DNA of 64,000 nucleotides from a virus (lineage: Duplodnaviria; Heunggongvirae; Uroviricota; Caudoviricetes): the IMG/VR virus record IMGVR_UViG_3300012933_000236, positions 1-64,000 of that record, one strand, 5' to 3'. Shown one piece after another: positions 2,846-39,039 of the stretch. How positions within the stretch are numbered: the first letter of the stretch is position 1; each line of letters opens with the position of its first letter. Made by a program: the position numbers and the translations under genes. The notes under the pieces are model-generated. The model worked only from the letters and a program-made list of their open reading frames with translations. It did no database searches and had not been told where the DNA came from.

Positions 2846-4588
2846 TTAAAATCCCGAATTATTCTCTGCAAGCCACTCATCCAAGTTGTGTAATGTATGA
2901 GTGTCGTTATCATAGTAGACGTTACCTGCTGGTCCTGTCAATCCACAAATACGATTCTTACTTAGTACAACCTTGGTAGTGTTGCGTTCAGTTGGGTCTT
3001 CTGCATATTTATTTCTACTTAGCAAAATGTTAGCTGAAGCTGACTTAATGATAGTAGAGCTACCTTGAATTTCTTCTTCAGTGAATGAACCACCTTGTGA
3101 AGAATTCTGTACACCAGAAGCTGACTTACGAACATGATTGATAAAGATCAGTGTTACGTTGTGACTCTTGATGATACCTTTGGACCACTTCATGAATAAC
3201 GCTTGGTCTTCATTGGATAGTCCATCTAAGATATCTTGCAAAGGATCAAGCACGATAATTCTGCAACCGCATGATACAACAAGCTCTTCTACTGTATCTT
3301 GAATCTCTTCGATTGTACCATCACGGTTATCGAGTAGATAGAAACGATGTTGACCATCTTCATTATAGAAAAGCTCGTTTGCCTTCTCACGTACTTTATC
3401 AGACTCCAACAAGTCTTTCTTAGCTTCATCATCTTGAATCAACGAGATTTTACGGCTAAGGTGTCTACCTAATAGTGTTTCACCATACTGACCAGAATCT
3501 AACTCCATTGAAACAATACCGATTTTATGTGGTGAGTTAAAAATCCAATGATAAACCATTTCGTTAACAAAGGATGTTTTACCAAGACCAGTACCTGCAG
3601 CAATGTTGATGATGTGTCCCAAAGGTAAACCACCTACAAGCATTTCATTCAATGTATTCATGAAGTGCGGAAACGGTACTTTTGGTACAGTAGCTTGAGC
3701 TAGAATCTTATCATACAGTTCACCACTACCTAATACACCAACAGGAGTATATCGTTTAGCTTCATAGAAGTTACGAATAAATTCATCTTGCTTACCTTCT
3801 TCAAGATAAGTATTTGGATCTTTATACCGCATGTGCATAACTTTAACTTTACCTTTTGGTAAAGCTTTAACTACGTCTTCTGTAGCTTCTTTACCAGCTT
3901 TGTCATTGTCATAACAAACAACAATTTGATCGAAGCTATCGAAAAAGCGATATTGTGCTGCAATTTGTTTATGTGAGTTAGCACCTGTAGTTGGACTAAC
4001 AACAGCCATTTCATACTCACCACCACGAGATTTATTGTATTCAGCAAACATCTGATATGCAGACAGTGCATCAAGTTCACCTTCTGTAATTAGAACATAC
4101 TTACCACCTCGATTAAACTTAAACTGCATAAACAGTTCGCAATCAGCACCAGTGCGACCTTTAGAATAAAAGTTCTTTGGTACTTCACGGATTTTGTATC
4201 CTACGATTTGACCATCTTGTGTAGCTGGATAGTATTGCTCTTCAACATCACCATTATCATCGTAAGAATATCGCACACCAAAAGGTTTGGTAGTTTCATC
4301 TTTAAGTCCACGAAAATCTTTACCACCTACACCAGTTAAAGATTTAATCTTTGTATTTTCTTCTGCAGTTAGTGCAGGTTTACCGCTTGGTTTAACTTCC
4401 ATACTTTTTTCTTCCTTTGATGTTGATGATTTTACTTTGGATTTCTTGTTGGAATTTTGTTCCTTGAATTCATCCGAAGGTACAGTATGCTCACAGACAA
4501 AGCAGTGCGTGGACTTATCCTCATACACTGCTCTACCATCAGATGAACCACACTCGTCACAATTGATGTGTTTAATAAATGCTGCCAA
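2846..4588 (-). CDS. bifunctional DNA primase/helicase (T7 gp4-like: zinc ribbon, TOPRIM, DnaB-family helicase)
   Basis: 580 aa. N-terminal CDECGSS...CFVCEH zinc ribbon, TOPRIM-like ITEGELDALS, Walker A GTGLGKTSF, Walker B IIVLDP. Confidence 0.9.
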   Translation of the reverse strand: MAAFIKHINCDECGSSDGRAVYEDKSTHCFVCEHTVPSDEFKEQNSNKKSKVKSSTSKEEKSMEVKPSGKPALTAEENTKIKSLTGVGGKDFRGLKDETTKPFGVRYSYDDNGDVEEQYYPATQDGQIVGYKIREVPKNFYSKGRTGADCELFMQFKFNRGGKYVLITEGELDALSAYQMFAEYNKSRGGEYEMAVVSPTTGANSHKQIAAQYRFFDSFDQIVVCYDNDKAGKEATEDVVKALPKGKVKVMHMRYKDPNTYLEEGKQDEFIRNFYEAKRYTPVGVLGSGELYDKILAQATVPKVPFPHFMNTLNEMLVGGLPLGHIINIAAGTGLGKTSFVNEMVYHWIFNSPHKIGIVSMELDSGQYGETLLGRHLSRKISLIQDDEAKKDLLESDKVREKANELFYNEDGQHRFYLLDNRDGTIEEIQDTVEELVVSCGCRIIVLDPLQDILDGLSNEDQALFMKWSKGIIKSHNVTLIFINHVRKSASGVQNSSQGGSFTEEEIQGSSTIIKSASANILLSRNKYAEDPTERNTTKVVLSKNRICGLTGPAGNVYYDNDTHTLHNLDEWLAENNSGF

Positions 4589-12602: not shown

Positions 12603-12868
12603 TTGATTACTCCTTTACCTTGTGTTTAAACTTGTGCTTAACTGCAGTTATAACTTAAGTTATACTTAAATTGAAACTGAGTTTTTGAAACTTGAGCTTG
12701 TCAACTCTCGCTTGTCCCTCTGCTGCCCCTGACCCCTGAAGCGAATTCTACACACATCAACAACTCTTGTCAAGCCCTATCTGCAAAAATAATTTTAAAA
12801 TATTTGTTGTGTTGTGCAAAAAGTTGTGCTACAGTCAAACCTTCACTCAACAACCGAAAGGAAACAAC
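12603..12868. promoter_or_regulatory. divergent intergenic switch region between the leftward replication block and the rightward early block
   Basis: 266 nt non-coding. Minus-strand TTGACA at 12701-12706, plus-strand TGTGCTACAGT extended -10 at 12825-12835, RBS GAAAGGAAAC before the ATG at 12869. Confidence 0.45.
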
Positions 12869-19546: not shown

Positions 19547-19790
19547 ACATGATATAAACGATTGGCAAATGATAACAGAACCTTTGAAACTTAAAGAGTT
19601 AAAAGAAGGTGAAATGTTTAGTTTCTTTGGAGATAATAACAACCGAATCTTCAAAGTAATGTGTAAAGCTAATCAAATTGTATTCGCAGAAACAGCAGAA
19701 ATATTCAATGCTTTTGCTTTACCAGATTTTATGGAGGTATTCCCTTGGGTGATAAACAAAAACGTAAATCAAAAAGCTACAGACAACTGA
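19536..19790 (+). CDS. hypothetical protein
   Basis: Start at MLNEHDINDW, overlapping the thyX end. Confidence 0.4.
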   Translation: MLNEHDINDWQMITEPLKLKELKEGEMFSFFGDNNNRIFKVMCKANQIVFAETAEIFNAFALPDFMEVFPWVINKNVNQKATDN

Positions 19791-20074
19791 TTCAAATGGT
19801 AGCTAAGTCTTCAGGTTATCATGTATATGAAGTAGAAGATGTACTTCAGCACTTGGTAGGTAATATTCAAGTAGTACTTGCTGCTGATATGCCTGTGAAG
19901 ATTAGTGGTCTTGGTACAATGCGTGTAAAAAAGATGAAAATTAAAGGTATTCCCGGTAAACATGCAGAGAATACATGCTATACTGCGTTCAGGTTGTCAG
20001 TCACCTCTGACACAGGATTGCAAAATCACTTAAAGGAGCATCATGTCGAATCAACAGACCCCTTCAACTACTAA
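19745..20074 (+). CDS. HU/IHF-like DNA-binding protein (probable start at MVAKSSG, 19796)
   Basis: ISGLGTMRVKKMKIKGIPGKHAENTCYTAFRLS resembles the HU arm and beta-ribbon. Confidence 0.45.
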   Translation: MGDKQKRKSKSYRQLIQMVAKSSGYHVYEVEDVLQHLVGNIQVVLAADMPVKISGLGTMRVKKMKIKGIPGKHAENTCYTAFRLSVTSDTGLQNHLKEHHVESTDPFNY

Positions 20075-28387: not shown

Positions 28388-28810
28388 ATGGCTTATGTAT
28401 CTCAAGAAGTTATCACCAAAGCTCGTGCTGCACTGAAAGCACTCAATAAAGAGTATGGTGTAAAAGCTACCCTCAGTGGTAAAGGTGATAGTACATTGTA
28501 TTTGACTATTGCAGAAGGTAAGATTGATTTTATTACCAACTACTGCGAGAATGTAACTGCTAAACGCAGACAGCATGATACTGCACAAGTTATTGCTTGG
28601 GTTACAAAAGAGCAAAACATCAGTGTAAATCAGTATTATCTTGATATTTCATTCTCAGGTATTGCATTGGAGTATTTGGAGAAAGCTAAAGCTATTATGC
28701 ACGTTGATCATTGGGATAAGTCTGATATTCAATCTGACTATTTTAATTGTGCGTATTATGTGAACATTAGTGTTGGTCGTTGGAATAAACCGTATAAGTT
28801 CGTAAATTAA
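28388..28810 (+). CDS. hypothetical protein
   Basis: 140 aa. Confidence 0.5.
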   Translation: MAYVSQEVITKARAALKALNKEYGVKATLSGKGDSTLYLTIAEGKIDFITNYCENVTAKRRQHDTAQVIAWVTKEQNISVNQYYLDISFSGIALEYLEKAKAIMHVDHWDKSDIQSDYFNCAYYVNISVGRWNKPYKFVN

Positions 28811-28820
28811 GGAGAATCAA

Positions 28821-29072
28821 GTGAAAGCTAAAAACGTAATTGAAACAAAAACAGTAACTACTGGAGTACCTGAACTTCAAATTACATTATCCATTGAAGA
28901 AGCAAAAGCATTGCTTGCGTTAGGTTCTACATCCCGATTTAACCGCATTGATTTTCTTTCATATTCTGATACTGAAAGAAAATATACAGACAAGGTTGTC
29001 AATTGCTCTATAATCTTAGGTGATTTATTTCACGAAGCAAAAAATTTTTTGCATGATCAAGAATTAATTTAA
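28821..29072 (+). CDS. hypothetical protein (last gene of the early block)
   Basis: 83 aa, RBS AAGGAGAA. Confidence 0.5.
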   Translation: MKAKNVIETKTVTTGVPELQITLSIEEAKALLALGSTSRFNRIDFLSYSDTERKYTDKVVNCSIILGDLFHEAKNFLHDQELI

Positions 29073-29083
29073 AAATCCTACCA

Positions 29084-29125
29084 CCCCTTTCAGACTAAAA
29101 ATCTGCTAGGGGTTTTATTTTTATT
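29084..29125 (+). terminator. terminator-like hairpin closing the early block
   Basis: CCCCT...AGGGG stem with an inner CAGA/TCTG stem, followed by TTTTATTTTT. Confidence 0.45.
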
Positions 29126-29199
29126 TCAAAAACCCGCTTGCCTATTTTTTTTGAAAAGCCGCCTTGGGTATTGGTTGCATAAAAACCTAAACTTTATTA

Positions 29200-29345
29200 G
29201 GTGCGACTGAGCAGTCAGCGACTAGACCGTTCAGTCAGAAACTATACTGTTTAGTCACAAATATACCATTCAGTAATAAAATGAACAGTACAGTTATAGA
29301 CTAGACCGTTTAGTATAATTATGACGAAATAGTCAGAAAAATACC
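29200..29345. repeat. iteron-like direct repeats ((C/T)AGTCA(G/C) heptamers; AGACTAGACCGTTYAGT, 2 copies)
   Basis: cagtcag appears three times, plus tagtcac, cagtcac, tagtcag. A 17-nt repeat occurs at about 29218 and 29296. Confidence 0.5.
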
Positions 29346-29381
29346 GCACAGTCACAATTTAAACGCAATAGTTGCAAATAA

Positions 29382-29511
29382 GTTATGCACAGGATATTCA
29401 CAGGTTATACATTATCCACAGATCAGCAAGTATCATGCCAGAGTTATCCACAGGTTATCAGTCTTATATAAGAGTCAAAATGTGGATAACATGCACTACT
29501 GGTGTGGATAA
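29382..29511. promoter_or_regulatory. cluster of four perfect DnaA boxes (TTATCCACA), two on each strand, plus one 8/9 box; origin-like region
   Basis: Boxes at 29412-29420, 29444-29452, 29481-29489 (reverse) and 29503-29511 (reverse); TTATgCACA at 29382-29390. Confidence 0.6.
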
Positions 29512-29620
29512 CTTTTTCTAAGGGGATAGGCGCTTGAAAGGTCAAAACGGCTAAAAAGTGCCTTAAAACCCGTTTAAAAGGCATGTATAAAATTACAGTA
29601 TGGCATGAATTTTGCTCTTC

Positions 29621-29639
29621 GCGTGCGCGTGTGCGCGTT
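29621..29639. repeat. alternating purine-pyrimidine GC tract (CGCGTGCGCGTGTGCGCG), potentially Z-DNA-forming
   Basis: 19-nt GC-only alternating tract inside DNA that is more than 70% AT. Confidence 0.4.
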
Positions 29640-29658
29640 ATTTATAATGCACATAAAT

Positions 29659-29794
29659 GAGAAACAAAAGTTTACATAGGGTTTTCACTGTAAAAATAAT
29701 TCTCCAACATGAAACAAACCCTAAAATATCTGTATAATCAATTACATGGTGAAGCGATAGGGCGCACCTAGTAAACGAGAAACAAAAGTTTACA
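29659..29794. repeat. 18-bp direct repeat GAGAAACAAAAGTTTACA (two copies, 118 bp apart)
   Basis: Copies at 29659-29676 and 29777-29794, in non-coding AT-rich DNA. Confidence 0.45.
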
Positions 29795-30029
29795 GTTCTT
29801 TAACAATTGAGAGTTTTCCATTATTAGTGCAAATAAAAGTACTAATAACCCCAAAACTCACAAATGAAAGTATTAAATGAATATCAAATTACAATCAGAG
29901 AATGCCCTTATTGAAGCAATTCAAAAACGTTTAGATTTTTCATGCTTGGGTTTCTCAGATAATGGCAAGATTTCCCGATTTTGCCGCATTAGAAACGAAT
30001 GGATTATTTATTAAACTGGAATTTATATT

Positions 30030-30191
30030 ATGACAAAATCAAATGTTTTAAATGTTTTCACGATTATCTTTTTATTTATTGTAGCGTTATCTTGTATTTT
30101 CTCAGCCTTAATTTTTAATATCTGGCCATTATGTTTTTTGAGTATCTTATGTTCATTATGTGCATTTGTTTTAATGTTCAACGGTGAATAA
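30030..30191 (+). CDS. small membrane protein (53 aa)
   Basis: MTKSNVLNVFTIIFLFIVALSCIFSALIF... Confidence 0.3.
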   Translation: MTKSNVLNVFTIIFLFIVALSCIFSALIFNIWPLCFLSILCSLCAFVLMFNGE

Positions 30192-30269
30192 TGTTATCTG
30201 ATAATATATTAGAATAACCTAGTATATTATCGGGCTAATATTGGCCGATTCTCAAATGAGATAATCAAA
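30192..30269. repeat. intergenic inverted-repeat element (GATAATATAT, 13 nt, ATATATTATC; ATTATCGGG), copy 1
   Basis: tctgataatatattagaataacctagtatattatcgggc; related copies lie before each of the next three genes. Confidence 0.5.
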
Positions 30270-30527
30270 ATGAAATATACAAAGACTGTATTTATTAAAT
30301 CAGATAATCAATATGATCAATTTAAAGCCCTTAAAATCGGACAATGGGTAAATGGATTATTCCTTGATAATAAATCGGTATTATATCGGGGTCAATTTAT
30401 GGGTTTTGATAATAATGAAAAACCGATTATTAATTTTCGAATTGATAATGCAAAGCATAATCTAGATTGGAAGAATCAATTTATATCTAATAAATATCTC
30501 CGGCAGTTTGCTAAAGTGAAAGCCTGA
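30270..30527 (+). CDS. small hypothetical protein P1 (85 aa) of the repeat-flanked cassette
   Basis: Leader gagataatcaaaatgaaatat is shared with P3. AT-rich codon usage distinct from the rest of the phage. Confidence 0.5.
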   Translation: MKYTKTVFIKSDNQYDQFKALKIGQWVNGLFLDNKSVLYRGQFMGFDNNEKPIINFRIDNAKHNLDWKNQFISNKYLRQFAKVKA

Positions 30528-30601
30528 TAATGTCAGATATAATACCTTAATAATATAGGGTATTATGTCGGATAATATTGTCCGAAATGAAAGTTAATAT
30601 C
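30528..30601. repeat. intergenic repeat element copy 2 (CTGATAATGT...TATTATGTCGGATAATATTGTCCG)
   Basis: Imperfect palindrome TATTATgtcgGATAATA. Confidence 0.45.
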
Positions 30602-30817
30602 ATGAAATTGATTTCCACTATTAATAAGTCAATCGGTTTTCAAGCTAAAGTTTATTATAATGCAGATTATAATGAATATGTCGTTAAATATTATGATGAA
30701 AACAAACGGATTATGTCAGAATCAACTTTTTATTACACAGATGATAAAGAGGATGCAATTAATACTGCATATAAAGAATTAGAATATATGGCAAATAATA
30801 AAGTATTATCGGATTAA
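30578..30817 (+). CDS. small hypothetical protein P2 (start uncertain: 30578, 30590 or 30602)
   Basis: Y-rich core FQAKVYYNADYNEYVVKYYDENKRIM...FYYTDDKEDAINTAYKELEYM. Confidence 0.45.
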   Translation: MSEMKVNIMKLISTINKSIGFQAKVYYNADYNEYVVKYYDENKRIMSESTFYYTDDKEDAINTAYKELEYMANNKVLSD

Positions 30818-30831
30818 ATGGAGATAATCAA

Positions 30832-31056
30832 ATGAAATACATTAAGGCATTTAATATCTGGAATATACCGCAGGAATTAATTAAATATATTCAACCCGGT
30901 CAATATATCTATGCTGGAGATAAAGATAATAAAGGAATTTATCAGGGGATTAAAAAATCGGGTATTATTGTAGTCGCTTGGCAGGGAAATATTAATAATC
31001 AAAAGGATAAAAAACAATACATTAAAACATTAAGGGATTATGCAAAATCAAATTAA
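30832..31056 (+). CDS. small hypothetical protein P3 (74 aa), distant paralog of P1
   Basis: Leader ggagataatcaaatgaaatac nearly identical to that of P1; MKYIKAF... versus MKYTKTVF... Confidence 0.5.
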   Translation: MKYIKAFNIWNIPQELIKYIQPGQYIYAGDKDNKGIYQGIKKSGIIVVAWQGNINNQKDKKQYIKTLRDYAKSN

Positions 31057-31138
31057 ATAGTGTTTTCTGATAATATATCGGTTTAATTATCGGTATATTA
31101 TCGGGATGATATTATCCGAATCAAAATGAGTCTATATT
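31057..31138. repeat. intergenic repeat element copy 3 (CTGATAATATATCGG...ATTATCGGTATATTATCGGGATGATATTATCCG)
   Basis: Several overlapping GATAAT/ATTATCGG half-sites. Confidence 0.5.
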
Positions 31139-31897
31139 ATGACATGCACAAAATCAAGCGCACAATATAATGGTTTTAAATCAGATAATCTATTGAGTAT
31201 TTCAAGCGATGCAAAAACATCAAAAGGGGAAAAACTAGGGTTTCTCACTGGCATTCTATATCTCGCACCATATAAAACAATATCAATTTATAATACTTGC
31301 GCAATGGCTGAAATAGCGGGTTGTGCTGAAGCTTGCTTATATAGTGCAGGGCGTGGGGCTTATTCTAGCGTACAAAATGCCCGTATTAACAAAACAAATT
31401 GGTTTTATCAGGATAGAGAATCATTTATTCATCAATTGATTAAGAATATATATTCTCTTATTTATAAGGCCAATAAGCTAGGATTAACCCCATTGATTCG
31501 ACTCAATGGAACCTCAGATATTAAATGGGAGAATATCGGGTTTGATTATCAGGGAAAGCATTATAATAACATTATGGAATTATTCCCCGATATTCAATTC
31601 TACGATTATACAAAGATTATTAATCGAGATAATCTACCTGCTAATTATGACCTTACATTTTCATATTCAGGTAAACCAGAGTTTACTAAATATGTTAATC
31701 AAGCCATTGATAAAAATATGAGGATCGCAGTAGTATTTAAAGATAAATATAATCTACCTAATGAATTTATGGGTTTAACTGTAGTTAATGGCGATAATTC
31801 AGATATCAGGCACTTAGATGATAATGGGGTCATTGTTGCATTATATGCAAAGGGTAAAGCTAAAAAAGATAATACGGGTTTCGTAGTTAATAATTAA
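31139..31897 (+). CDS. hypothetical protein with Cys cluster (C-x7-C-x3-C)
   Basis: 252 aa with NTCAMAEIAGCAEACLYSAGRG. No family could be assigned. Confidence 0.55.
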   Translation: MTCTKSSAQYNGFKSDNLLSISSDAKTSKGEKLGFLTGILYLAPYKTISIYNTCAMAEIAGCAEACLYSAGRGAYSSVQNARINKTNWFYQDRESFIHQLIKNIYSLIYKANKLGLTPLIRLNGTSDIKWENIGFDYQGKHYNNIMELFPDIQFYDYTKIINRDNLPANYDLTFSYSGKPEFTKYVNQAIDKNMRIAVVFKDKYNLPNEFMGLTVVNGDNSDIRHLDDNGVIVALYAKGKAKKDNTGFVVNN

Positions 31898-36186: not shown

Positions 36187-36261
36187 GCTGGAATAGCTCA
36201 TCTGGTAGAGCAACGGTTTTGTACTCCGTAGAGGTGGGTTCGAGTCCTACTTCTAGCACCA
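36187..36261 (+). tRNA. tRNA-Thr(TGT): tRNA-Thr (anticodon TGT)
   Basis: GCTGGAA acceptor, TAGCTCATCTGGTAGAGC D-arm, anticodon loop TTTGTAC, T-arm GTGGG-TTCGAGT-CCTAC, encoded CCA. Confidence 0.75.
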
Positions 36262-36268
36262 AATTTAA

Positions 36269-36343
36269 GCTACTATCGTCTATCGGTTAGGACATCTGGT
36301 TTTCATCCAGACAAGCGGAGTTCGATTCTCCGTAGTAGCTCCA
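36269..36343 (+). tRNA. tRNA-Glu(TTC): tRNA-Glu (anticodon TTC)
   Basis: GCTACTA/TAGTAGC acceptor, anticodon arm TCTGG-TTTTCAT-CCAGA, T-arm CGGAG-TTCGATT-CTCCG, CCA. Confidence 0.75.
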
Positions 36344-36512
36344 GTATTTACTAAAGTCCAGTGGGTCAAATCCCCGTCCTCTGAGTATTGCCCAATGCTT
36401 GGCGGTGGTGTAGAGAAACACATTAGTATTTACGTGTAATCCGCAACTACGTTAAAAGTTCGGCTGCTCAATCGCCAACGGAAAGAGCATAAGGTTACAG
36501 TTGGATAAATTT

Positions 36513-36587
36513 TGGCATATAGCTCAGAGGTAGAGCAAACGGCTGTTAACCGTTCGGTCTGTGGTTCGATCCCACATTTGCCAGCCA
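36513..36587 (+). tRNA. tRNA-Asn(GTT): tRNA-Asn (anticodon GTT)
   Basis: D-arm GCTCAGAGGTAGAGC, anticodon arm AACGG-CTGTTAA-CCGTT, T-arm TGTGG-TTCGATC-CCACA, CCA. One T-T mismatch in the acceptor stem. Confidence 0.65.
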
Positions 36588-36593
36588 ATCAAT

Positions 36594-36671
36594 CTATATA
36601 TAGGCTAGTCTGGTTAAGTCACCTGATTTGGGGTCAGGAAGTCGGTGGTTCGAATCCATCTATATAGACCA
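36594..36671 (+). tRNA. tRNA-Pro(TGG): tRNA-Pro (anticodon TGG)
   Basis: CTATATA/TATATAG acceptor, anticodon arm CCTGA-TTTGGGG-TCAGG, T-arm GGTGG-TTCGAAT-CCATC, CCA. Confidence 0.7.
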
Positions 36672-36678
36672 TATATTT

Positions 36679-36754
36679 ATATCTCTAGCTCAACTGGCAG
36701 AGCAACGGATTCCAAATCCGTAGGTTGTAGGTTCGATTCCTACGGGGTATGCCA
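36679..36754 (+). tRNA. tRNA-Trp(CCA): tRNA-Trp (anticodon CCA)
   Basis: D-arm GCTCAACTGGCAGAGC, anticodon arm ACGGA-TTCCAAA-TCCGT, T-arm GTAGG-TTCGATT-CCTAC, CCA. Acceptor has two G-U pairs. Confidence 0.7.
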
Positions 36755-37569: not shown

Positions 37570-39039
37570 ATGTCAGAACAAATAACGATTGCACCAGCTT
37601 CTAAAAAGCAAGAGATGTTTTTAAATAGTCCAGCAACTATTACATTAGCAGGTGGTGCTGCAGGTTCTGGTAAAACATACACATCATTACTCATTGCATT
37701 GAAGTTCATGCAGCACCCTAGAGCAACGGGTGTAATCTTTCGTAGAACTTCTAAGATGCTTACTGCTCCCGGTTCAATCTGGCATGAAGCAGTGCATTTA
37801 TACACAAGTCTTTATCCAAACCTAAGAATCCGAAGTAGAGAACTTGAGTTAGTGTTCCCAAATGGAGCATTACTTAAATTCAGTCATATGCAACACGCAA
37901 CTAACATGTATGATCACAAAGGTGGTCAGTACTCATTGGTTATTTTCGATGAAGCAACTGATTTTGAAGAAGAAATGGTAGTATACCTTCTTTCTCGCAT
38001 GCGTAACGCTTATGTTGATTATAAACCACAGATGTTTATGATGACTAACCCTGATTACAATTCCTTCTTACGATCATGGATTGAAGATTACTATCTTGAT
38101 GCAAATACAGGTATTCCTTTACCAGAAAAAACTGGTCATCAGCGTTATTTCTTTCGTCAAGGTAACACAATGCTTTGGTACGATAGTTTAGAGCAAGCCG
38201 AAGCTGCTCATGGTGCTGGTAACGAATCAGGTATTTCATCTTTTACCTTTATTGGTGCTACTTGTCGAGATAACCCTCCGCTACTCAAAGCACAACCAGA
38301 TTATATCAGTAGATTGATGTCTTTACCAAGAGTAGAGAAAGAAAGATTACTTGATGGTTCATGGTTTGCTCGTCAGGAGTCTGCTGGTTTATTTAAGCGC
38401 GAATGGGTCGGTTTAGTTGATCACGCAAACGGTAGAGCAAGAAAAAGAATCAGAGCTTGGGACTTTGCTTTCAGTAAACCTTCTGAACAATATCCAAATC
38501 CTGACTGGTCAAGAGGTGTTCTAATCTCTAAAGACCCACATAATTTATATACAGTAGAAGATGTAGTATCCATTAGAGATAGAGTGCATGAAGTAGAAAA
38601 GCTAGTATTCGATACTGCTTTACAAGATGGTCAAGACGTAACAATTAGCATTCCGCTAGACCCCGCTGCAGCCGCTGGCGCTTATGCCAAAGACTTACAG
38701 CGCAAGTTAGCTGAAATGGGTTTCAACGTAAGATTAACAAAGCCTGTTAAATCAAAGATTACTCGCTTTGCACCTTTTTCAAGTATAGCACAAGCTGGTT
38801 TCGTAAACGTAGTAAAAGCTAATTGGAATAAAGATTTCTTTGACGAATTAGAAGTCTTCGATGGTGATCCAAAGAAAAAAGACGACCAAGTTGACTGCTG
38901 CTCAGATGCAATGCTTTTATTAAATAAAGATACACAATTGCCGCAATTTACTCTACCAGATTTTACAGGTACTAGTCCATTTGATGGAAGTGTATCAGGT
39001 TTTAATATCCCTACTTTTAATAGTTCATTAGTTTCATAA
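37570..39039 (+). CDS. terminase large subunit
   Basis: 489 aa. Walker A LAGGAAGSGKTY, Walker B LVIFDEATDF, and a C-terminal nuclease-domain acidic residue pattern. Confidence 0.9.
   Translation: MSEQITIAPASKKQEMFLNSPATITLAGGAAGSGKTYTSLLIALKFMQHPRATGVIFRRTSKMLTAPGSIWHEAVHLYTSLYPNLRIRSRELELVFPNGALLKFSHMQHATNMYDHKGGQYSLVIFDEATDFEEEMVVYLLSRMRNAYVDYKPQMFMMTNPDYNSFLRSWIEDYYLDANTGIPLPEKTGHQRYFFRQGNTMLWYDSLEQAEAAHGAGNESGISSFTFIGATCRDNPPLLKAQPDYISRLMSLPRVEKERLLDGSWFARQESAGLFKREWVGLVDHANGRARKRIRAWDFAFSKPSEQYPNPDWSRGVLISKDPHNLYTVEDVVSIRDRVHEVEKLVFDTALQDGQDVTISIPLDPAAAAGAYAKDLQRKLAEMGFNVRLTKPVKSKITRFAPFSSIAQAGFVNVVKANWNKDFFDELEVFDGDPKKKDDQVDCCSDAMLLLNKDTQLPQFTLPDFTGTSPFDGSVSGFNIPTFNSSLVS

Follow-up and report, generated by a model that had tools for sequence, protein, structure and literature searches.

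Iteron-containing replication origins, such as P1 oriR, RK2 oriV, pSC101 ori and F oriS, have repeats spaced about two helical turns apart beside DnaA boxes of either orientation, together with a GC-rich tract and a likely bending protein; whether RK2 needs its boxes varies with the host. At the origins of phages lambda, T7 and c2, a promoter lies across or beside non-coding repeats (the DnaA-stimulated pR at lambda ori, phi1.1A/B at the T7 primary origin, the ori transcript of lactococcal phage c2), and transcriptional activation or priming is known at all three. Clusters of DnaA boxes are also found in the non-coding elements datA and DARS, with conserved spacing around a central architectural site; these act without being an origin, and the essential core of Escherichia coli datA is box2-IBS-box3 (PMC4585315). 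Here, we describe a locus that is like each of these in some respects and departs from each in others. It lies at 29.08–29.64 kb of the 64,000-nucleotide stretch of virus record IMGVR_UViG_3300012933_000236 that was analysed (the window). As the main non-coding control locus of this DC31-like siphovirus, which infects freshwater Comamonadaceae, it is situated within the largest non-coding region of the phage. The genome is of ~77 kb. Limnohabitans phage DC31 (PQ492658, 76.2 kb) is the closest relative in culture, and its complete genome was used as a proxy for the 13 kb of the phage that lie beyond the window.

The region was noticed in a first-pass annotation, made by a model from the letters of the window, as an origin-like sequence in which iterons are accompanied by four perfect DnaA boxes, two per strand and convergent, and by one 8/9 variant. 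This description of the boxes is confirmed. The perfect copies of TTATCCACA are at 29412–29420 and 29444–29452 on the plus strand (boxes 1 and 2) and at 29481–29489 and 29503–29511 on the minus strand (boxes 3 and 4), and no other perfect copy is found on either strand of the 64 kb. The variant (box 0), TTATGCACA at 29383–29391 on the plus strand, fits the degenerate consensus TTATNCACA, and its counterpart in DC31 is a perfect box. Copies with one mismatch number 23 in the whole window, against 22.0 in shuffled sequences, and so the signal is the cluster itself. None of the five, the four perfect boxes and the TTATNCACA site, is more than 130 bp away from the last iteron. Between the two convergent pairs, at their centre, is an AT-rich palindrome, TCTTATATAAGA (29462–29473), a candidate site for bending, dimer binding or melting.

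The direct repeats beside the boxes form a true phased array. Nine iterons with a consensus of about ACYAGACCGTTYAGTCAsAAA follow one another on the plus strand from 29202 to 29381 with a phase of 19–20 bp, their AGT cores falling at 29213, 29233, 29253, 29272, 29292, 29312, 29331, 29350 and 29370. Exact copies of (C/T)AGTCA(G/C), which had been put at six or more, number five, all on the plus strand within 144 bp (29212–29355), the other four repeat units being degenerate. The 16-mer GACTAGACCGTTYAGT does occur twice, as had been reported, at 29220 and 29299, where 0.02 occurrences are expected. The non-coding DNA around these features proved to be longer than the ~330 nt first given to it: it extends for ~800 nt (29073–29876) with no open reading frame (ORF) of 50 or more amino acids. 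It is not notably AT-rich, the GC content being 35.3% at the locus and 37.1% in the window, with no 40-bp stretch among the window's 15 least stable. Judged from sequence and its conservation, the boxes are genuine, selectively maintained DnaA-type sites standing beside genuine iterons, and they would be expected to be occupied by DnaA.

The conservation was seen by scanning the viral contig collection with the 16-mer TCAGTCTTATATAAGA (29458–29473), taken from the centre of the convergent boxes. It was found in 97 stretches, with 53–54 distinct loci in which DnaA boxes stand on either side of it as they do here. The shared unit, or cassette, is ~90–130 bp long, and its consensus over 49 distinct examples is AGTTATNCACAGGTTNTCAGTCTTATATAAGA-N8-TGTGGAYAA-N13-TGTGGAYAAC-TnTTT...AAGGGG. 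Box 2 reads TTATNCACA in these 49, with eight positions kept in 46–49 of them and the fifth free (C in 24, G in 11, A in 9 and T in 5); boxes 3 and 4 read TGTGGAYAA, and the 13-bp spacer between the two is kept. The spacing from box to palindrome to box is conserved in the 49; the centre fits the IHF consensus WATCAANNNNTTR only in part, and the A of ATCA varies from cassette to cassette. Compensatory changes are all but absent from the inverted boxes (0, 1 and 1 of 70, 49 and 105 changed cells, respectively). The boxes therefore behave like independent protein-binding sites, and their reading as arms of an RNA or cruciform stem is rejected.

Many of the carriers are podovirus-like contigs of 36–41 kb, in which the cassette sits in a ~1-kb non-coding region, flanked by a terS-terL-portal operon transcribed leftward and by early and replication genes transcribed rightward. 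Their cassettes have ~80–87% DNA identity, whereas their primase-helicase and polymerase are only ~30% and ~24% identical to those of the window, the replication proteins of the carriers ranging from 24 to 31%. A conserved cassette alongside such divergent replication proteins speaks for conserved host proteins as its readers. Among cultured phages in the phage collection, only DC31, whose host is Limnohabitans (sp. DCL3), and Curvibacter phage P26059A carry the cassette, and both hosts are Comamonadaceae. The locus of DC31 (20.1–20.5 kb) is syntenic and arranged alike, with the same iteron array followed by five perfect boxes. No match to the cassette was found in a collection of 72,556 plasmids, and an exact-pattern search for its 25-mer core, run over 185,579 bacterial and archaeal species with one genome per species, gave a single match on a phage-like contig of a metagenome-assembled genome (MAG). 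That contig (L176, CAZLJI010000109.1, 7.5 kb; loci are referred to by such L numbers) comes from a MAG labelled Ignavibacteriaceae and has, in addition to the cassette, a 70%-identical homologue of the 140-amino-acid phage gene found just upstream of the locus in the window; it is probably DC31-like phage DNA that has been binned into a bacterial MAG. The cassette is a conserved nucleoprotein-assembly site for host factors, with boxes in fixed geometry around a palindrome and a promoter core.

The promoter core is of sigma-54 type. There are two perfect matches to TGGCAY-N5-TTGCW in the window, both at the locus and divergent. The leftward one, TGGCATGATACTTGCT, runs from 29440 to 29425 on the minus strand between boxes 1 and 2, with the GG and GC of the −24 and −12 elements, and its predicted start at ~29414 is directed toward the iterons. 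The rightward one, TGGCATGAATTTTGCT, is at 29601–29616 on the plus strand and has a predicted start at ~29627, directed toward the gene block at 29877–31897. Their counterparts in DC31 are the only perfect sigma-54-consensus matches of that genome, and both lie with the five perfect boxes, which also occur nowhere else in its 76.2 kb, in one 230-bp interval. In 33 of the 53 distinct cassette loci, the GG and GC of the leftward motif are found at a fixed register, and the N5 between them takes 16 different forms; motifs with intact GG and GC within 400 bp of the core number 53, where their density across these loci would predict ~6. A spacer that varies freely between conserved −24 and −12 elements is the pattern expected of a working sigma-54 promoter, and we infer promoter activity for both motifs. 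The rightward one is present, again with variable spacers, in all 14 DC31-like loci with enough sequence, including those that have no DnaA cassette. Downstream of the leftward one are the nine iterons and no ORF, and its product would therefore be non-coding.

The boxes and the leftward promoter are closely interlocked. Its predicted start falls inside box 1, and box 2 adjoins its −24 element. The site just past the −12 element is a DnaA box in ~28 loci, and in 8–9 podovirus loci the same site is a canonical SOS (LexA) box, TACTGTA-N6-TACAGTA, 54 nt to the left of the core and 3 nt from the −12 element (L113, L118, L121, L124, L129, L156, L168, L088 and L112). The occurrence of a host operator at the position of box 1 suggests that the promoter is gated. 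The DnaA-ATP level and LexA are both reporters of the state of the host DNA.

The two halves of the locus are separable. The iteron array is lineage-specific and has been joined to a widely shared cassette, a related iteron core, CAGTCACAA, being found alongside the cassette in several podovirus lineages. Within the DC31-like group, L006 and L007 have iterons, the last of which abuts the rightward promoter, and no cassette (the equivalent of 29364–29600); L005 has iterons and decayed boxes; and L004, L082 and L171 have the cassette and no 20-bp iterons, L004 having a tandem (CATATAAG)n array instead. Every DC31-like relative examined retains at least one module, the two being missing together in 0 of 14 loci, a number too small to be statistically meaningful. 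The CATATAAG and TTATATAAGC repeats, which in L004 (4830–4915) occupy the usual place of the iterons, are also found in tandem or dispersed in L001 (7920–7995), L008 (4780–4890) and L134 (to the right of the core) and echo the central palindrome. Some contigs have amplified arrays, with box numbers from 8 to beyond 12: in L116, eight perfect boxes are packed at 11–12 bp (core −60 to +60), and L099 and L114 have overlapping tandem TGTGGACAA units with a 9-bp period on both sides of the cassette.

Compared with iteron-containing plasmid and prophage origins, the locus shares the phased repeats, the adjoining boxes in both orientations, the GC-rich tract and the likely bending protein, and the dispensable cassette parallels the host-dependent need for boxes in RK2. 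It differs in that there is no Rep gene, no clear AT-rich 13-mer element and no sequence match to plasmids, in its occurrence in lytic-type phages with a T7-type replisome and in having a sigma-54-type promoter among its boxes. The likeness to lambda, T7 and c2 lies in the promoter across or beside non-coding repeats, for T7 in a replisome of gp4 and polymerase type and for lambda in a link between host DnaA and activating transcription (work of Wegrzyn, cited in PMC8477408). The promoter here is, however, of sigma-54 type rather than sigma-70 or phage-polymerase type, no O-type initiator like that of lambda is encoded, and the boxes flank the promoter core in an arrangement more like gating than downstream stimulation. 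For a primary origin of the T7 kind, the replisome genes are present, but there is no phage RNA polymerase among the scanned ORFs. The likeness to datA and DARS is in the clustering and spacing of boxes, but here the centre is a 12-bp AT-rich palindrome with a poor IHF fit, there is a promoter-like motif inside, and the element is phage-borne. Finally, the motifs resemble RpoN promoters in the perfect TGGCAY-N5-TTGCW, the GG and GC kept around a variable spacer and an A-tract with a possible bend upstream of the rightward copy; they differ in that DnaA boxes are found at the usual position of the activator, and neither an enhancer-binding activator nor a recognisable upstream activating sequence was found in the window. 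The element is made of known parts in a new combination and setting.

We tentatively favour, at a confidence that stays below even, the reading that this is a DnaA-assisted, transcription-activated initiation and control locus for a T7-type replisome. Four considerations lead to it: the conserved leftward promoter faces iterons and no gene; the phage has a self-loading gp4-type helicase-primase but encodes no recognisable initiator or RNA polymerase; the pairing of iterons with convergent DnaA boxes is a hallmark of initiator assemblies; and transcription-dependent phage origins are well known. It is further favoured by the confinement of all perfect boxes of the window and of DC31 to this one locus, by the conservation of the boxes and of the cassette, by the HU/IHF-like protein of the phage, by the position of the locus in the podovirus contigs and by the retention of one module or the other in every DC31-like relative examined. 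Host DnaA would fill the boxes, probably helped by a bending protein, would remodel the local DNA and would gate the embedded promoter through box 1 on the predicted start and box 2 against the −24 element. When the promoter fired, host RNA polymerase would read leftward over the gene-less iterons and this transcription would open or prime the DNA for the primase-helicase and the family A polymerase. Replication would in this way start with the assistance of DnaA and the activation of transcription and without a dedicated Rep protein. The cassette probably does recruit host DnaA, while an origin and a control switch are not separable from sequence alone.

A number of observations weigh against this reading. 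The minimum of the cumulative GC skew, proposed at the outset as a check, is at the divergent strand switch (at ~13 kb in the window and at 35 kb in DC31), with no signal at the locus; skew in this genome follows the direction of transcription, and so is weak evidence either way. No distinct unwinding element of 13-mer type was found beside the boxes, and the least stable 40-mer of the locus (−42.8 kcal/mol, ~1.8 standard deviations from the mean) is inside iterons 3–5 and outside the 15 least stable of the window. The iterons have no assigned binding protein. Cassette and iterons are each missing from some close relatives, so that neither module is indispensable, and the copy in P26059A, a phage with a family B polymerase, is decayed and inverted. 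A LexA operator in place of box 1 is typical of gene regulation and not of known origins. Sigma-54 promoters require an ATPase activator, and six-frame translation of the window showed no bacterial enhancer-binding protein (bEBP) with a GAFTGA or EBP-type Walker A motif; there was also no Sigma54_activat match among the scanned ORFs and no RpoN by motif search in the window, though an activator of the host might serve. Thus, of the first-pass proposal of a DnaA-dependent phage origin, the boxes and iterons stand as genuine, and the origin itself is not established, given the skew minimum elsewhere, the lack of an unwinding element and the modules missing in relatives. As an alternative origin, the divergent region at 12.6 kb was considered and rejected; it has only short palindromes and neither boxes nor iterons.

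The main rival, which we think rather unlikely, is that the region is purely transcriptional: two divergent sigma-54-type promoters would be gated by DnaA (by LexA in the podovirus lineage), the rightward one driving 29877–31897, with the iterons as enhancer or operator sites for a phage regulator and replication starting elsewhere. This would suit the finding that no element other than the rightward promoter with its GC tract is common to all 14 DC31-like loci, cassette and iterons being optional, and the enhancer-like position of the iterons directly against that promoter in L006 and L007. The LexA box at exactly the position of box 1 in 8–9 loci, a Fur-like palindrome nearby in ~10 podovirus loci and the lack of an origin signal from GC skew or DNA stability point the same way. 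However, the leftward promoter, embedded in the conserved cassette, has no downstream gene in this phage, the window motif search gave no bEBP activator, and nine repeats phased at two helical turns with convergent boxes fit initiator assemblies better than operators. The sigma-54-type motifs, moreover, are found nowhere else in the window or DC31 and so are not the general middle or late promoters of the phage. The possibility raised at the outset that the boxes lie in a promoter with a transcriptional role only is half borne out: they do flank a conserved sigma-54-type promoter, but no gene lies in its path, and so an exclusive role in gene control is not shown either. A further reading, which is doubtful, is a horizontally spread cassette that depends on host factors only and lets lytic freshwater phages read the replication state of the host. 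DnaA, or LexA in the sister version, would clamp the sigma-54-type promoter, and only release of the clamp would allow it to fire, so that a non-coding transcript with a priming or activating role, or else the following phase of transcription, would be coupled to the replication-initiation potential of the host or to DNA damage; the same DNA might also sequester or inactivate DnaA, as datA does, and stop host initiation.

Manipulation of DnaA could also be the sole function, which we regard as improbable. The cassette would then be a titrating decoy, or a datA- or DARS-like site that alters the nucleotide state of DnaA, and would shut down or reset host initiation without phage replication starting there. 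The order of box, AT-rich centre and box at fixed spacing recalls box2-IBS-box3 of datA, the boxes of L116, L099 and L114 are amplified (from 8 to beyond 12), an HU/IHF-like protein is among the phage gene products, and the cassette is dispensable in close relatives, as an accessory host-takeover device might be. But a simple titrating site could do without fixed orientation and spacing and without a promoter inside it, the centre matches the IHF consensus poorly with its key A variable, there are only four to six boxes per genome copy, and literature searches gave no phage precedent. A packaging or terminus function (pac, cos or a terminal-repeat boundary), with the terminase small subunit on the iterons and the DnaA boxes incidental, is very improbable. 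Podovirus contigs do carry the locus a few hundred bp upstream of the terS-terL operon, and a conserved CCCCTCCCCCC is found at −290 to −450 from the core, with two short contigs beginning ~20 nt away; contig ends, though, are weak evidence for physical genome ends, TerL is 8 kb off in the window, and the conservation of DnaA boxes and sigma-54 motifs across unrelated structural modules would be left unexplained. Least credible of all is a captured plasmid-type theta origin, one of the possibilities first entertained, or a fragment of a host oriC. Iterons, inverted pairs of DnaA boxes and a GC-rich tract do resemble RK2 oriV and P1 oriR, but nothing in the plasmid collection matches, the flanking ORFs have no replication-initiator match in Pfam or PHROG (in agreement with the first-pass annotation, which had recognised no Rep gene nearby), the only species-wide match to the 25-mer core is the mis-binned phage contig, and it is in viral contigs of lytic-type phages that the cassette is abundant.

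Full-text searches of the literature on phage DnaA-box clusters and phage sigma-54 promoters gave nothing comparable, and the use of sigma-54 promoters by lytic phages is not described in the literature searched. The element is not mentioned in the papers on DC31 (PMC12195039) or P26059A (PMC5964084). Origins and control regions are unknown for most environmental lytic phages. If our favoured reading of an initiation and control locus is correct, many phages of the abundant freshwater Comamonadaceae share one compact DNA device, which recruits host DnaA and a sigma-54-type promoter instead of a phage-encoded initiator, and non-coding DNA is far more conserved in them than the phage replication proteins. 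It would be the first case found of lytic phages that systematically use DnaA boxes and sigma-54-type promoters, would provide a sequence marker for host prediction in viromes and, with DC31 and its Limnohabitans host in culture, would be a directly testable system.

Several further features are found in the non-coding region of the window. At its left edge is a terminator-like hairpin with a T-run (29083–29123, plus strand; an inverted repeat of 29083–29094 and 29102–29113 followed by TTTTATTTTT), which ends the upstream plus-strand gene block; it is kept in DC31-like relatives and was not called by the consensus scan. Between this early-operon terminator and the iterons are two to three copies of the motif AAAAASCCGCYTGSSTAWWW (29124–29190, plus strand), which occurs two to four times at the equivalent position in every DC31-like locus read (L001, L002 and L004–L009). 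Six A3–5 tracts lie between the boxes and the rightward promoter (29537–29592), the last four (29553–29592) 11–13 bp apart, and from its sequence this DNA may be intrinsically bent. At the predicted rightward start is an 18-nt tract of alternating pyrimidines and purines rich in GC, CGCGTGCGCGTGTGCGCG (29620–29637), scored as terminator-like by the scan; the alternation is kept in 12 of 14 relatives despite changes between CG and TG, and so the tract might adopt a Z-DNA or hairpin structure. The leader of the downstream genes has two direct copies, 118 bp apart, of the 23-nt sequence TAAAYGAGAAACAAAAGTTTACA (29654–29676 and 29772–29794); the first copy overlaps a sigma-70-like match, TTTACA-18-AATAAT, and the second is conserved with its flank in DC31, L005 and L008. 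A sigma-70 promoter scan gave a count for the region below that of shuffled sequences, with nothing convincing inside the boxes, and an Rfam scan of 28900–30100 at a permissive threshold gave matches at chance level only.

Other features accompany the cassette elsewhere. A perfect 15-bp palindrome, TGAGAATCATTCTCA, with the 7-1-7 layout of a Fur box, is found 130–240 nt to the left of the core in L088, L110, L118, L121, L123, L129, L156 and L168 and is absent from the window locus. The CCCCTCCCCCC motif is conserved 290–450 nt to the left of the core in ~20 cassette loci (for example L095, L113, L118, L121, L138 and L158); the short contigs L129 and L156 are those that start ~20 nt from it, while L125, L141, L160 and L175 all start ~660 nt to the left of the core. 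These shared starts could reflect either the end of the physical genome or a break in assembly. A conserved HNH endonuclease gene of 141–156 amino acids is found on the minus strand, 38–525 nt to the left of the core, in L102, L115, L125, L137, L141, L147, L160, L163 and L175, starting just past the leftward sigma-54-type motif, and L003, L005 and L006 have other endonuclease-like genes between the 140-amino-acid gene and the terminator; the locus is a hot spot for homing endonucleases. The leftward promoter was also considered as the driver of the podovirus terS operon, an idea weakened by the several contigs that end between the two. In L092 and L146, contigs of ~90 kb, three copies of GTCTTATAYAAGAG are followed 77 nt on by a perfect rightward sigma-54 consensus, TGGCACnnnnnTTGCA, with a leftward copy 326 nt upstream.

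The genes of the window are arranged in five blocks. The first (1–12.4 kb, minus strand) encodes the replication proteins, namely a family A DNA polymerase (612–2726; Pfam DNA_pol_A, PHROG 17), the T7 gp4-type primase-helicase that is the presumed user of any origin (2846–4588; Pfam Toprim_2 and DnaB_C, PHROG 239, E = 1e-173) and DNA and RNA ligases. The second (12.8–29.07 kb, plus strand) has small genes including those for a dCMP deaminase, ThyX and an HU/IHF-like DNA-binding protein (19745–20074, plus strand; Pfam Bac_DNA_binding, E = 7e-7, PHROG 379). The latter is a possible architectural factor in trans, and ORF56 of DC31 has the same annotation (PMC12195039). To the right of the locus are a block of small genes with a GP88-family protein (29.88–31.9 kb, plus strand), genes for Clp protease and PhoH (32.7–34.2 kb, minus strand) and, from 37.2 kb on the plus strand, tRNAs, TerL (37570–39039), portal, capsid and tail genes. 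Scans of ~50 ORFs with Pfam and PHROG gave no Rep-type initiator, phage RNA polymerase or sigma factor. The 140-amino-acid gene just upstream of the locus (28388–28810) is conserved, with 369 homologues and no Pfam family, and a confident model of its protein (pLDDT 87) had no fold match in the PDB.

Six tRNA genes are found in the phage, at 336–410 and 36187–36754. The host has a GC content of 59% (PMC12195039), the phage ~37% in the window. GenBank places DC31 in Pakpunavirus, which is doubtful for a 76-kb long-tailed phage with a T7-type replisome; its tail measures 203 nm (PMC12195039). In the short divergent region between the replication and early blocks, two adjacent palindromes, TAACTGCAGTTA and TAACTTAAGTTA (12624–12677), are likely to be operators or promoters at the main strand switch.

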